Source: Candidatus Heimdallarchaeota archaeon (GTDB taxonomy: Archaea > Asgardarchaeota > Heimdallarchaeia > Heimdallarchaeales > Heimdallarchaeaceae). From it: DNA of 32,000 bases. Positions 1 through 15,407 of this stretch are shown here, in pieces (the stretch's first letter is position 1; each line of letters starts with the position of its first letter). The stretch covers positions 30,001 through 62,000 of the forward strand of contig DAOVER010000004.1 in NCBI GenBank assembly GCA_030668875.1, given 5' to 3'. Below the pieces are notes generated by a model that was not told the origin of the DNA, searched no databases, and saw nothing but the letters and a program-made list of their open reading frames with translations. The translations under genes and the position numbers were made by a program.

Positions 1-951
1 TATCATCCTGAGTCACTAGGTTTAGAAAGTCACATATTTCTCTTGCGTGTAGATTCAATTGATAAATATAGAATCGTAGAAAGAATTGTTGATTATCACC
101 CATATCTAGTAGTTAGACAGCGATGCTATGGTGGTATAACAGGAATATTTCTAAAAGTACATATCCCTATAGGTTCAATAAATAAATTTCTTGAATTTCT
201 CAATTACATTAAAGATAACAACCTTATTGCTGAGGTTGTACATTCAACAACAATAGGAACGGGTATTAAAACTCATAGTGATCTTACATATTGGGAACCC
301 ACCACTGGTAAATGGTTCTTCAATTGGGATATCTGGAAGAAAAATATTGACAGCGTTGATTATATTCCTCAGTTTGACTATTTTCAAAGAATAGCTAGAG
401 AAAAACCTAAGAACGTTCTAAGCCACCTGAAATATCTTGATTTTCTTTTACTGCAGGAGCTTGTTCGTGATCCTACACAGAAATATGCAGATTTATCAAA
501 ACAGCTAGGAACACCGCAATACACAATTTCTCGTCGAAAGAAATTTTTGAACAAATATGTTATCCGAAATTATCTTGTAGACGTTGATAGATCGTTCTTT
601 GGGCTCGAAGATGAGTTAGTTTTCAAAGTTATATGTAGTCAACGTGCGATGACAAAGGTCATTTATCTGATTAAGAATCTTCCCCTTCCTTTTGTATCGG
701 ATTTTCGTCATACTGAAAAGGGCTTTCTCTGGAAAATGCTTCTTCCTCCTAAGGACAAATTGGAACTAATTAACCTTCTTTGGTCACTATTTCCTGATCT
801 ACAAATAATGATGCTTGATCCTCAAACAACTGTTACAAAACCATTTAATCCCAATAATTATTCATTTATTGAACAATCTTGGAAGGATTCAGTTGAATAT
901 ATGATTGAACAATCATTAGATAAAGCTCGTGGTGAATTAATACTTGCATGA
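1..951 (+). CDS. Lrp/AsnC-like winged-helix transcriptional regulator with tandem domains, 5'-truncated by the window edge
   Basis: Frame is open from base 1 (YHPESLGLESHIFLL...) upstream of the TTG at 43. HTH-like segment LQELVRDPTQKYADLSKQLGTPQYTISRRKKFL is followed by DRSFFGLE, echoing the N-terminal HPESLGLE. Confidence 0.6.
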   Translation, partial: YHPESLGLESHIFLLRVDSIDKYRIVERIVDYHPYLVVRQRCYGGITGIFLKVHIPIGSINKFLEFLNYIKDNNLIAEVVHSTTIGTGIKTHSDLTYWEPTTGKWFFNWDIWKKNIDSVDYIPQFDYFQRIAREKPKNVLSHLKYLDFLLLQELVRDPTQKYADLSKQLGTPQYTISRRKKFLNKYVIRNYLVDVDRSFFGLEDELVFKVICSQRAMTKVIYLIKNLPLPFVSDFRHTEKGFLWKMLLPPKDKLELINLLWSLFPDLQIMMLDPQTTVTKPFNPNNYSFIEQSWKDSVEYMIEQSLDKARGELILA

Positions 952-11706: not shown

Positions 11707-12528
11707 TTGAATCTGGTAGAGATGAAAGATTCAAGTTTTACTGAGGATAATATTATAGTGGAAGGTTCCGATTTATTCATAGTTTTGGATAAAAGAAAAA
11801 GATGGCTCACAAAAGCGATTTCTGGAAAACAGTTCCATTGCCACAAAGGTTTTTTTGACTATGATGAAATAATTGGAAAACCGTATGGTTCGCGTGTTAC
11901 TACAAACAAATCAGCAACTCTTTCAATTTACAAACCCTTACCTAGCGATTACTTAGCAAAACTCACCCATAGCTCGCAAATTATCTATCCTAAAGATGCG
12001 GGGATGATATTGATGAATACTGGAATTGTTCCTGGTTCTAAGGTTATTGAGACAGGCACAGGTAGTGGAGCTTTAACATCAATTTTAGCCAATTATGTTA
12101 GAACTGATGGACATATTTTCACATATGAGATAAGAGAAGAAGCATTTAACACTGCATCCAAAAACATTCAGCGACTAGGACTTGAATCCTATGTGACACT
12201 AAAGAATCAGGATGCTTCATTGGGGTTCGATGAAACTGATGTTGATGCAGTTGTGCTAGATTTGGGTGATCCTTGTGAAGTCATTCCTCATGCTTATACC
12301 TCTCTTAAGTACAGTGGGATTATTGCAGTTTTTCTCCCAACATATAATCAAGTGGAGAAAGTTTATACAAAATTGCGAGAATTTCATTTCGGAGAAATAA
12401 CTGCTCTAGAACTCATTAAAAGAGAAATGCAATTGAAAGTCAATGCTATAAGACCAAATACAAGGATGATAGGTCATACAGGATTTTTGATTTTTGCAAG
12501 AAAATTATATTACGAGGAAGAAGAATGA
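11707..12528 (+). CDS. trmI: tRNA (adenine-57/58-N1) methyltransferase TrmI/Gcd14
   Basis: SQIIYPKDAG, ETGTGSGALT, YEIREE, DAVVLDLGDP, RPNTRMIGHTGFL. The start may be ATG 11722. Confidence 0.93.
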   Translation: MNLVEMKDSSFTEDNIIVEGSDLFIVLDKRKRWLTKAISGKQFHCHKGFFDYDEIIGKPYGSRVTTNKSATLSIYKPLPSDYLAKLTHSSQIIYPKDAGMILMNTGIVPGSKVIETGTGSGALTSILANYVRTDGHIFTYEIREEAFNTASKNIQRLGLESYVTLKNQDASLGFDETDVDAVVLDLGDPCEVIPHAYTSLKYSGIIAVFLPTYNQVEKVYTKLREFHFGEITALELIKREMQLKVNAIRPNTRMIGHTGFLIFARKLYYEEEE

Positions 12529-12995
12529 CAATTATTTTCCGATGTAGTAATTGTGAGACAATTAATGACATTCCAAACAATCATCAGTATAAACTATGTA
12601 AGAAGTGTGGTAAAATAGTTACTTTCGAACCAGGTGAGTCTATTATTCTAGGTGATTCAGAGGCTGAGAGTGATATTTTTTTACAAAGTGGAAAGTTATC
12701 TACTTCAGAAGCGGAAAAATTCTTTAATGTTGCTGATACCCATGTCCAACAGATTTCAGCACTAATCATGGACCTTGAGAAGAAGTCAGGGACTTTACTT
12801 GACATTCAATCAAAATCTTTACCAGATACCATTCTATCTATTTTACGACAAAGTGAAACAAATTCTCTGGATGAACTAATTCGAAAATGTAAAATGTTTG
12901 ACATTTCTTTATTTAAAATAGAACAGATACTGATTCAACTAAAAAAAGAAGGTTTTGTATATCAACCAAAAAGTTGGTTGATATTATTAGCTTAA
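12525..12995 (+). CDS. Zinc-ribbon (DUF1922-like) plus C-terminal winged-helix protein
   Basis: IFRCSNC...LCKKCG; C-terminal IEQILIQLKKEGFVYQPK. ATGA overlap with trmI. Confidence 0.55.
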   Translation: MTIIFRCSNCETINDIPNNHQYKLCKKCGKIVTFEPGESIILGDSEAESDIFLQSGKLSTSEAEKFFNVADTHVQQISALIMDLEKKSGTLLDIQSKSLPDTILSILRQSETNSLDELIRKCKMFDISLFKIEQILIQLKKEGFVYQPKSWLILLA

Positions 12996-12998
12996 ATT

Positions 12999-13646
12999 TT
13001 ACTTATATTTTCGTTTGGCTAACTTTTCTTTCAACCAACCATACAAGATTAACCCAATAAGCGCTAATACAATAATTGTAAATGTTATCCCAATCCCTAT
13101 GATTGTTCCAGAAGAATTACTACCAAGGTCTACAACTGATATAGTAATGTTTTCTACAACGAGAAAATCCATTGCTGCTGCGCCAAATTCGCTAGTTGAC
13201 TCATATACATCTTCAGCTTTGAAGTAAATTGAAAGATTATATTTTGCTTCAATATTTACGACTTCAGCTACTATTGTTCCAGTAAATGTTTCACCGGCTC
13301 CAAGTGTTCTATGATTGTTATCAAAGTATATTGTGTAATTATAATCGAATTTATCATTACCATCTTGGTGCTTGAAATGAGCAGTTAGAGAAATTACATC
13401 AAGAGATAAATCACCAAAATTGGCTAATGTTGCAAAAATGTTTACATTTTCTCCTCTTACAAGATTTTCTTCTGATATTCCTCCACTAATACCTTGAATA
13501 TATCCGCTTTGTTCAATTGTTGAACTATTTTGAATATTATAGTTTATTTCTGCTTTTGTCATGTTTGCAGATGTAACCAAAGTTAACATCACTAATATTG
13601 CTAGAAAACTTATTCTCCTAAGTGGGCTTTTTTGCATTGTGATCAT
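12999..13646 (-). CDS. Type I membrane protein, translocon-associated protein alpha (TRAP-alpha/SSR1)-like
   Basis: Signal peptide, beta-sandwich ectodomain, single C-terminal TM helix and basic tail. Manual alignment to the SSR1 lumenal domain (see findings). Confidence 0.65.
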   Translation of the reverse strand: [215 protein letters not shown]

Positions 13647-14278
13647 CCTTCTTGAGTTAGCATTAAAGATAATTCTCTTTTTATCTTTCCTAATGCTCTA
13701 TCTATCCTTTTTTCATAAGTATTATTAATACTTATTTTTCTATCAGAAGTTTCAGCTATTAGTCCTCCCATACAGTCAATAAATTCGTTGGATAGAGTTA
13801 TCTTTGACTTAATTTTGTTTTCTTTCTCAGCTTTATCAGCTATACTCGAGAGAAACTGACTTGTGAAAATTTTCTTATCTTGTTTTCTACAATAGACGAT
13901 GACTACTGGTTCTTTAAGAGTTAAAACAGCTGTCAACAAAAGATTTTCTAAGCTTTTTTTATACTCCTTGGAGTCTGCCATTGTTTTGATTTTTTCTGTA
14001 GCTTTAGCAATGAATTCATAAACTAATTCATCGCGAAACTTTGTTAATTTCAACCTTAAATCTAATTCTTGTTTAGCTTTTTCTTTTGAAAACTCAGCTT
14101 TAGCCTTAGTTTCAGCTACTTTTACAATTTCCTCTTTTTTTTGCTGAATTATGGTTTCAGAATCTTTGTTAATCTCATGTATCTCTTTCTGCTGACTAGC
14201 CACGATATCTTTGATTAACTTATTCGTGTTTTCACGAATTTTGTCTATGATTTCTGGGTTGAAATATTCATCACTCAT
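13643..14278 (-). CDS. atpE: A/V-type ATP synthase subunit E
   Basis: Long charged N-terminal helix; C-terminal CMGGLIAETSDRKISINNTYEKRI (GG.....DG.I..NT...R motif). Confidence 0.85.
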   Translation of the reverse strand: MSDEYFNPEIIDKIRENTNKLIKDIVASQQKEIHEINKDSETIIQQKKEEIVKVAETKAKAEFSKEKAKQELDLRLKLTKFRDELVYEFIAKATEKIKTMADSKEYKKSLENLLLTAVLTLKEPVVIVYCRKQDKKIFTSQFLSSIADKAEKENKIKSKITLSNEFIDCMGGLIAETSDRKISINNTYEKRIDRALGKIKRELSLMLTQEG

Positions 14279-14384: not shown

Positions 14385-15407
14385 TTAGAATAGCGTTTCG
14401 TCCTCTGCATATCTGTAAGATATCACGAAAAGAACAAAGAAAATACATGCTGAGAGTGCAACAACCAGTGTTATCATTCCATTCCAATAACTTGCTATGA
14501 AGTTTACTGCTATGAATATAGGAACCATCAACATCCCCCCTCCTCCTCCGCTGTCTTTTGACATTTTCTTTCTCCACCTGATGAGAACTTCTGTTAGGCT
14601 TAGACCTACAGCTATTCCATTTATGATAAACATCGCTAAATGAGCTGAATCCCACTTTGTTACAAATATTAAGATAAGTAAAAATCCTCCAAACAGAAGG
14701 AATTTAATTACTAGCCCAATCCTGCTTTCGTCTGTTTTTGTATAAGATACCTGTGATGCTCCTTCTCGAAAGAACAAAAAGAAATTGGTTACTGCCATTG
14801 CACATGCTAAACACAAAACCACACCATAGAAGTATCCTGAATACAATACCCAAATATCCCAAATAGGACCAATAACGACAGAATAGTCAACATAGAAAGC
14901 TATGGCTACCATTAGAGGAATTGCTGCTAGTAAGAGGCCTGGGATAACAATCAGCATAGCTGGAACATTCTTTTTAACTCCAAATGCATATACTAGTAAT
15001 TTAACAGCAAAAAACGCTCCAAACACAGCTATAATGGGTGATCCGAATGGTAAGACAAAGAAGAACAAACAAAATATGGCATTTACCATATAGAATAACT
15101 TTGTGTCGATTCTGACTTTTCCAAGAGCTCTCCACATTAGTTCATATGAATTCGCAATTCTATCTCTTTTGACTATTGAAGCTAAAGTAAAAGGTAGTGC
15201 AAAAATGAGAGGCGAAATAATTTTCAAGATGACAAAATCCCCACTTCCTGAAGAGAAATATTCACTCTCTGACCAAAATATGAAAGAATCTAAAGACATG
15301 TCTTTCATTGGCCCTAGAAACGCCCACAAATAGAAGAAGGTCGGAAAAATAAAGATTTGAAGCAAGACAATGAATCTGTTAACCATCATTCCTCTCATAT
15401 CTACCAT
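14385..15407 (-). CDS. Polytopic membrane protein (~9 TM) of unknown function
   Basis: 340 aa, mostly hydrophobic helices; AAGGTG RBS at 15415-15420 (minus strand). Confidence 0.8.
   Translation of the reverse strand: MVDMRGMMVNRFIVLLQIFIFPTFFYLWAFLGPMKDMSLDSFIFWSESEYFSSGSGDFVILKIISPLIFALPFTLASIVKRDRIANSYELMWRALGKVRIDTKLFYMVNAIFCLFFFVLPFGSPIIAVFGAFFAVKLLVYAFGVKKNVPAMLIVIPGLLLAAIPLMVAIAFYVDYSVVIGPIWDIWVLYSGYFYGVVLCLACAMAVTNFFLFFREGASQVSYTKTDESRIGLVIKFLLFGGFLLILIFVTKWDSAHLAMFIINGIAVGLSLTEVLIRWRKKMSKDSGGGGGMLMVPIFIAVNFIASYWNGMITLVVALSACIFFVLFVISYRYAEDETLF

Follow-up and report, generated by a model that had tools for sequence, protein, structure and literature searches.

The gene at positions 12999-13646 on the minus strand of the analysed window (the whole stretch of 32,000 nucleotides, taken from a contig of a Candidatus Heimdallarchaeota archaeon) raises the question of whether its product is an archaeal counterpart of subunit alpha of TRAP, the translocon-associated protein complex. 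TRAP is an accessory complex that assists the Sec61 protein-export channel of eukaryotes and adds complexity to the translocon of the eukaryotic endoplasmic reticulum (ER) when compared with the prokaryotic Sec channel. In an initial annotation, made from the letters of the sequence, the product had been described as a TRAP-alpha (SSR1)-like protein that an automated pipeline would likely label hypothetical. The closest homologues, which are labelled Candidatus Heimdallarchaeota, are named 'hypothetical protein' in public records; the same family-level group includes Ca. Heimdallarchaeum aukensis and Ca. H. endolithica.

That TRAP-like subunits occur in Asgard archaea, as the initial annotation had noted, is borne out by candidates in print. 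In Lewis & Hegde (eLife 2024, PMC11186639), Heimdallarchaeota TRAP-alpha candidates were obtained by structure search (E ~1e-7 for alpha), reciprocal HHpred returned human TRAP-alpha as the top match (E 0.031), and a contact between Heimdallarchaeota TRAP-alpha and SecY was predicted confidently by AF2. The same paper treats TRAP-alpha and TRAP-beta as paralogues that arose from an archaeal proto-TRAP. Heimdallarchaeial TRAP-alpha candidates, including a second divergent copy, are also given by Eme et al. (Nature 2023, PMC10307638, supplement), and Carilo et al. (JBC 2024, PMC11417166) deal with the alpha, beta and gamma subunits of TRAP from Ca. Prometheoarchaeum syntrophicum MK-D1.

The open reading frame in the window is real and encodes a protein of 215 aa, as judged by the reading of the frame and comparison with homologues; the coordinates and the residue numbering of the initial annotation (N103 in NYT, N166 in NIT) fit its translation. 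In most homologues, the start corresponds to the second ATG (13637); it lies three codons further on and has AAGGA 8 nt upstream. A type I topology, with a signal peptide, a domain and a single transmembrane (TM) helix directly after it, was apparent from the sequence and from both of two AlphaFold2 models, which were based on 14 sequences (pLDDT 77.8) and 41 sequences (pLDDT 83.5). The predicted signal peptide (residues 1-32; 13551-13646, minus strand) contains a basic RR followed by a hydrophobic core and the residues T-K-A, after which cleavage is likely to occur, the site being predicted by eye from the sequence; both models place a helix here (residues 9-26/32), followed by a low-confidence linker. 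After this short linker comes a predicted extracytoplasmic beta-sandwich of ~125 aa (residues 49-172; 13131-13502, minus strand), modelled with a pLDDT of >90 in the second model. In both models it leads into a long TM helix (~residues 181-203; 13038-13106, minus strand), after which sequence and homologues indicate a short basic cytoplasmic tail of ~10 residues (13002-13037, minus strand).

Searches with Pfam and related sequence resources did not place the protein in the TRAP-alpha family. A single-sequence Pfam scan yielded no match to TRAP_alpha (PF03896; gathering score 24.7 bits) at E up to 10 and none to TRAP_beta (PF05753), an NCBIfam scan returned nothing, and profile searches of the PDB sequences with the 14-sequence alignments gave chance matches only, with no TRAP chain among them. 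When the whole genome was searched with hmmsearch and a vertebrate TRAP-alpha HMM, the protein ranked 158th (full HMM) and 117th (luminal part only), both ranks lying at noise level and therefore being uninformative. The best single-sequence Pfam match was instead DUF4352 (PF11611), which remained below threshold (E 0.079, 13.7 bits versus a cut-off of 25.9). Among 41 family members, DUF4352 matched five (best E 9.4e-5) and TRAP_alpha four (best E 0.1), whereas Wzt_C and TRAP_beta matched one each, TRAP_beta with an E-value of 0.0038. The neighbours in a language-model atlas were unnamed TACK-archaeal or CARDB proteins. These DUF4352, Wzt_C and TRAP_beta matches and the atlas neighbours are what would be expected of a generic archaeal surface glycoprotein, composed of an Ig domain of the CARDB/E-set type and a membrane anchor, whose likeness to TRAP-alpha would concern fold and architecture and not function. 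The many sequons of the protein, as often found in archaeal surface proteins, fit this explanation as well, and so does the shared beta-sandwich fold class of the E-set/CARDB-like domains (DUF4352 PF11611, the Wzt C-terminal domain and Bacillus subtilis Spo0M, 5CL2), many of which reach Z-scores of 9-11 in structure comparisons. We nevertheless consider it unlikely, because TRAP-alpha came first in four independent structure searches, with the E-set/CARDB-like domains below it every time and none of them showing the signal peptide-domain-TM layout.

In Foldseek searches against the PDB, TRAP-alpha chains occupied ranks 1-4 and 7 for the first model (E 2.3e-6 to 6.6e-5) and ranks 1-4 and 6 for the second (E 8.3e-7 to 3.2e-5). 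The identity of these chains was verified: 8b5l_q, 8b6l_E and others are deposited as 'Translocon-associated protein subunit alpha'. In the second search, ranks 5 and 8-10 (E 1.9e-5 to 8.3e-5) were held by chains labelled 6, F and TB in TRAP entries, which we take to be TRAP-beta, while a Wzt domain was matched at 4.4e-5 and a CARDB domain at 5e-4. VIA-align, which was run independently of Foldseek and exhaustively over 48,161 representative chains, likewise ranked TRAP-alpha first for the two models (Z 11.9 and 12.5). The runner-up was Spo0M (Z 10.5 and 11.0), so that TRAP-alpha led the next fold by 1.4-1.5 Z units, and the bulk of the E-set domains scored 8-9.8. Since the luminal domain alone aligned with 9n9j chain 5 at Z 11.5 (rmsd 2.8 Å over 119 residues), the structural match of the predicted models is independent of the TM helix. 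The E-value lead of TRAP-alpha over TRAP-beta in Foldseek was about tenfold; judged from the models, the preference for alpha over beta is consistent and modest in size. The ends of the structure alignment (residues 44..174 on 77..199) correspond to offsets of 33 and 25.

Profile-profile comparison was conducted against an alignment of 16 vertebrate TRAP-alpha sequences, retrieved with a 44-residue SSR1 fragment that the initial annotation had cited and that turned out to be exact, being identical to residues 95-138 of 8b5l_q and 8b6l_E. The ungapped alignment proposed for this fragment (offset 33) has 10 of 44 residues identical, and hhalign with the 14-sequence profile arrived at the same pairing by itself (Q64-106 on T97-139, P 0.009). 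With the 41-sequence profile, the match rose to Prob 87.9 and E 3.3e-6 over 134 columns, the reference comprising vertebrates only (Neff 1.5). The alignment spans residues 64 to 208 and places N103 on N136, N166 on N191 and the TM helices on each other, which also reproduces the second block that had been aligned by eye around N166. About half of the hhalign score is owed to the TM helix: it drops from 41 to 19.3 (P 0.007) when helix and tail are removed. As 30 column-shuffled templates scored up to 17.5 (<=17.5) and reversed templates 12-15, the profile score of the luminal domain barely exceeds that of the shuffles, and its sequence support appears thin. The register obtained from the profiles is, however, the register of the structure alignment (offsets 33 and 25), which constitutes independent support and argues against a generic surface protein. 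In a reverse test, 148 single-pass-like ORFs of this genome were ranked by their hhalign score against TRAP-alpha; the protein came 4th, and among the top 15 it alone was matched in the structure-alignment register.

The comparison with structures and profiles that the initial annotation had proposed, using TRAP-alpha and the TRAP cryo-EM models, came out in favour of TRAP-alpha. The generic CARDB Ig assignment, which it had named as the competing outcome, was borne out in one respect (a sub-threshold DUF4352 match and CARDB neighbours in the atlas) and contradicted in another, as the structure and profile methods, which are more sensitive, prefer TRAP-alpha.

Six sequons are present in the protein. 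Two of them had been claimed to lie in register with those of SSR1, and this holds in the 41-sequence profile alignment (Prob 87.9), with which the ends of the structure alignment agree: N103-Y-T (residues 103-105; 13332-13340, minus strand) is aligned with N136-F-T of TRAP-alpha, and N166-I-T in the last strand (residues 166-168; 13143-13151, minus strand) with N191-Q-T. Among 39 non-redundant family members, six sequon columns recur. The best conserved is column 137, found in 85% of the members, which in this protein is N137-L-S (13230-13238, minus strand) within a Y-N-V/L-S-I motif (Y-N-V-S-I in the family) and has no counterpart sequon in TRAP-alpha. Column 166 follows with 56%, the column beside N76 with 46%, column 88 with 44%, and columns 103 and 118 with 36% each. 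The two columns that coincide with TRAP-alpha are therefore recurrent, though others are better conserved. A double coincidence by chance is unlikely, its probability being well under 1% by a rough estimate that assumes six hot spots in ~125 columns. Because glycosylation sites cluster on exposed loops, the coincidence is supporting evidence, short of decisive.

When 1.84 billion representative proteins were searched with HMMER, no more than 12 relatives came up; ten of these 12 were retrieved, and all ten have the signal peptide, domain and TM layout. With genome searches added, the family was assembled to 70 distinct sequences. A profile built from 41 sequences detected it in 25/25 genomes of family-level group f1, 8/9 of f2, 1/1 of f3, 3/3 of f4, 19/19 of f5, 9/9 of f6 and 1/2 of f7, these seven groups being the ones placed in the class of the window, and also in f9 (2/2), f21 (3/3), f22 (1/1) and f24 (4/4). 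Matches in f11 and f14, the two largest groups of the phylum, were short, weak and located inside large proteins, and were left uncounted. The family is single-copy, with a fixed architecture of 180-250 aa, in all or nearly all sampled Heimdallarchaeia, unlike variable surface proteins, which again speaks against a generic glycoprotein. Searching this genome with the family profile (E up to 5) revealed no second, more divergent copy. An apparent second copy in f5 (G189:C112) proved to be a TRAP-beta gene.

TRAP-beta itself is accounted for by a separate gene. The genome of the window encodes a TRAP-beta homologue at G000:C34:19075-19836 (254 aa, type I; L006:1378-2142, minus strand) that exceeds the Pfam TRAP_beta cut-off with 38.7 bits. 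Directly downstream of it lies a gene for a Get3/ArsA-like P-loop ATPase (L006:335-1309, minus strand), named on the basis of its P-loop motif only. When the family of the TRAP-alpha-like protein was compared with the Asgard TRAP-beta family, hhalign gave 96.4% and E 1.2e-9 over 82 luminal columns, so that the two families are clearly homologous at the level of their profiles, in a paralogous relation. Such homology is to be expected if TRAP-alpha and TRAP-beta are paralogues, as concluded by Lewis & Hegde (2024), and it is a further argument against a generic surface protein. It also means that the assignment to alpha rests partly on elimination, the beta orthologue being accounted for. Both TRAP-beta (SSR2, PF05753) and the TRAP-alpha-like protein have a homologous luminal domain, type I topology and a short basic tail. 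They differ in being distinct genes, of which only the TRAP-beta gene of this genome passes the Pfam cut-off, and in the TRAP-alpha-like protein the TM helix comes right after the domain, as it does in alpha. In structure, last strand and domain-to-TM spacing, the protein resembles alpha more than beta.

Searches of the genome with the Pfam models for TRAP_alpha, TRAP-gamma and TRAP-delta gave chance-level matches only. One of these, a 214-aa frame on contig C86 (204-aa ORF), was rejected as a TRAP_alpha candidate; it has four TM helices and a lysine-rich tail, and the match was confined to TM and tail segments. The lysine-rich tail of this 204-aa protein is long, its gene (L001:1435-2049, minus strand, on G000:C86) sits beside that of ribosomal protein S6e, and in size and topology the protein recalls TRAP-gamma, with no profile supporting TRAP-gamma. 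Downstream of the TRAP-alpha-like gene and convergent with it, group f6 has a gene for a 331-aa protein (L054:3090-4085, minus strand) that combines a JAB/MPN domain at its N-terminus with a TRAP_beta-type domain at its C-terminus (29.7 bits); a Ras-family GTPase gene comes next (L054:4109-4792, minus strand).

Compared with eukaryotic TRAP-alpha/SSR1 (PF03896; reference chains 8B5L chain q, 8B6L chain E, 8BTK chain TA and 8RJC chain 5), the archaeal protein has the same order and spacing of signal peptide, beta-sandwich and single TM helix, sequons where TRAP-alpha has N136 and N191, a similar motif in the last strand (N-x-T-[VI]-x-[VI]), and a basic stretch after the TM helix. The initial annotation had placed the TM helix and basic tail at a spacing similar to that in SSR1, and the alignment of the two TM helices, each followed by a basic stretch, agrees with this. 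It differs in lacking a Pfam-level match and the acidic N-terminal tail, and in its location in the cell membrane as opposed to the ER. Also missing from the archaeal family are the ~57-aa cytosolic tail and its Trp ribosome anchor, the tail here measuring ~10 residues; the initial annotation had already pointed out that SSR1's acidic N-terminal region and its long cytosolic tail are missing, and both are absent from the ORF. In eukaryotes, the C-terminal anchor of TRAP-alpha inserts a Trp residue into uL29 and places basic residues on the 5.8S rRNA (PMC10279528). Animals, plants and algae all have this anchor in conserved form, and in C. elegans it is needed for function (PMC10279528). Because no such anchor exists in the archaeal protein, any link to the ribosome would be indirect. 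Since the Pfam threshold is missed and both anchor and acidic tail are absent, the protein is filed as an archaeal TRAP-alpha-like counterpart, and full membership in the eukaryotic family is not claimed for it.

With the published Asgard TRAP-alpha candidates, the protein shares its type I topology, its one Ig-like domain, the separate TRAP-beta gene in the genome and the fact that it is detectable only by structure or profile-profile comparison (here 8.3e-7 and an hhalign P of 0.007 to 3e-6). The Heimdallarchaeota candidates were compared by description, the main text giving no accession. As Heimdallarchaeial candidates with similar statistics are already in print, the kind of protein is known and this one is a new member.

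Taken with the register of the alignments and the distribution of the family, the structure searches lead us to conclude that the gene probably encodes the Heimdallarchaeial homologue or counterpart of TRAP-alpha, a 'proto-TRAP-alpha'. A function at the translocon is proposed with less confidence than this homology, by analogy with the eukaryotic protein. The product is predicted to be secreted and then anchored as a putative type I glycoprotein, a single TM helix holding one Ig-like beta-sandwich at the outside of the cytoplasmic membrane. On the eukaryotic analogy, this domain would bind beneath the exit of the SecY channel, where it could offer emerging N-glycosylated chains a platform or act as their chaperone; the TRAP-beta homologue encoded elsewhere in the genome would be its probable partner. 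Contact with SecY, glycosylation and function are all inferred. Archaeal homologues of TRAP-alpha and TRAP-beta support the notion that translocon complexity started in the Asgard ancestor. To this, the protein adds a well-supported member from the Heimdallarchaeaceae and a family of 70 sequences that covers the class. An archaeal form that has the luminal domain and the TM helix and lacks the anchor fits with the anchor being a eukaryotic addition. The published picture is unchanged by these data, whose value is therefore confirmatory.

What the locus adds beyond this picture is its genomic context. The TRAP-alpha-like gene is preceded on the same strand by a full-length gene for the peripheral-stalk subunit E of an A/V-ATPase (13643-14278, minus strand; PF01991, 85 bits), whose TGA stop codon shares nucleotides with the TRAP-alpha-like gene's first ATG (ATGA). 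The place directly upstream, on the same strand, is taken by subunit E in 22 of 33 diverse loci, covering f1, f2, f4, f6 and f9, and it is so in f5 and f22 as well, which makes seven family-level groups (loci L042-L060, L083-L085 and L101). Between the two genes there is an overlap of 4 nt or no gap at all in f1, f2 and f4, and the remaining neighbours vary. The order in f4 (L047-L049) is E, the TRAP-alpha-like gene and subunit I (713 aa, PF01496). The paired E is the sole PF01991 match of the genome in G111, G054, G123 and G014, and the sampled complete Heimdallarchaeum genomes, which belong to the same family, have one E each. Being the sole copy in the genomes checked, the paired E is a regular E subunit and not a spare paralogue. 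Elsewhere the arrangement differs: in f21 and f24, the family is located away from E, which there resides in an ordinary E-A-B operon, and in f11, other genes come after E.

The ATPase genes of these genomes are dispersed. The genome of the window carries two sets of rotary ATPase genes; sister genera have one E. One set forms a compact operon (G000:C40:48385-56995, L082) with the order A (containing an intein and a LAGLIDADG domain), B, D, Usp, E, I and c. The other is scattered, with A and B at G000:C12:51675-53900, a 1065-aa subunit I and subunit C/d at G000:C91:29909-34100 (L081), and E in the window.

In the parts of Eme et al. (2023), Lewis & Hegde (2024) and Carilo et al. (2024) covered here, neither the pairing with subunit E nor the register of the sequons was found. 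The pairing, which is new here, may come from co-expression and nothing more, or from a connection with the ATPase's membrane sector. In the latter case, the protein would serve the Heimdallarchaeial A/V-type ATPase as a partner in its membrane sector or as an assembly factor; it would have only the Ig-like fold and its ancestry in common with TRAP-alpha and TRAP-beta, and its TM helix would bind to subunit I or the c-ring, much like Ac45/Voa1, the type I accessory proteins of the eukaryotic V-ATPase. The persistence of E upstream on the same strand in f1, f2, f4, f5, f6, f9 and f22 while other neighbours change, the position between E and I in f4, and the single PF01991 match in the four genomes named above and in the complete genomes of the same family all fit such a role. 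We still regard it as improbable. Subunit E is cytoplasmic and the protein, with only ~10 cytoplasmic residues, is almost wholly extracytoplasmic, so that direct contact with E is unlikely; in f21 and f24, the family and E lie apart; and unrelated housekeeping genes are frequently found together in archaeal operons. Moreover, no ATPase accessory chain is among the structure matches listed, and similarity to Ac45/ATP6AP1 or Voa1 is likewise absent among the Pfam families and structure matches listed, the luminal parts of these proteins being poorly resolved in deposited structures. A variant is that the archaeal ancestor of TRAP-alpha was functionally tied to the rotary A/V-ATPase, as an accessory or assembly subunit of its membrane sector analogous to Ac45/Voa1, and that the translocon role of eukaryotes was a later recruitment. 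Its basis may lie in co-translation with E, the sole E of the genomes checked, and in the position between E and I in f4; we rate this more speculative scenario as less probable still. That the conserved neighbour belongs to an ATPase and not to the translocon counts against the TRAP-alpha assignment. The conserved operon with subunit E is an oddity open to test, and an unexpected partner could lie behind it.

Upstream of subunit E and on the same strand, a multi-pass membrane protein of 340 aa is encoded (14385-15407, minus strand), which occurs at this place in groups f1 and f5 only and yielded no match in Pfam, NCBIfam, the PDB sequences or the atlas. On the opposite strand, the gene at 12525-12995 (plus strand) codes for a 156-aa protein whose N-terminal part is a zinc ribbon (CxxC...CxxC) and whose C-terminal region resembles a winged helix (weak MCM_WH_arc match); it overlaps a TrmI/GCD14 methyltransferase gene by 4 nt and is kept beside it in f1.
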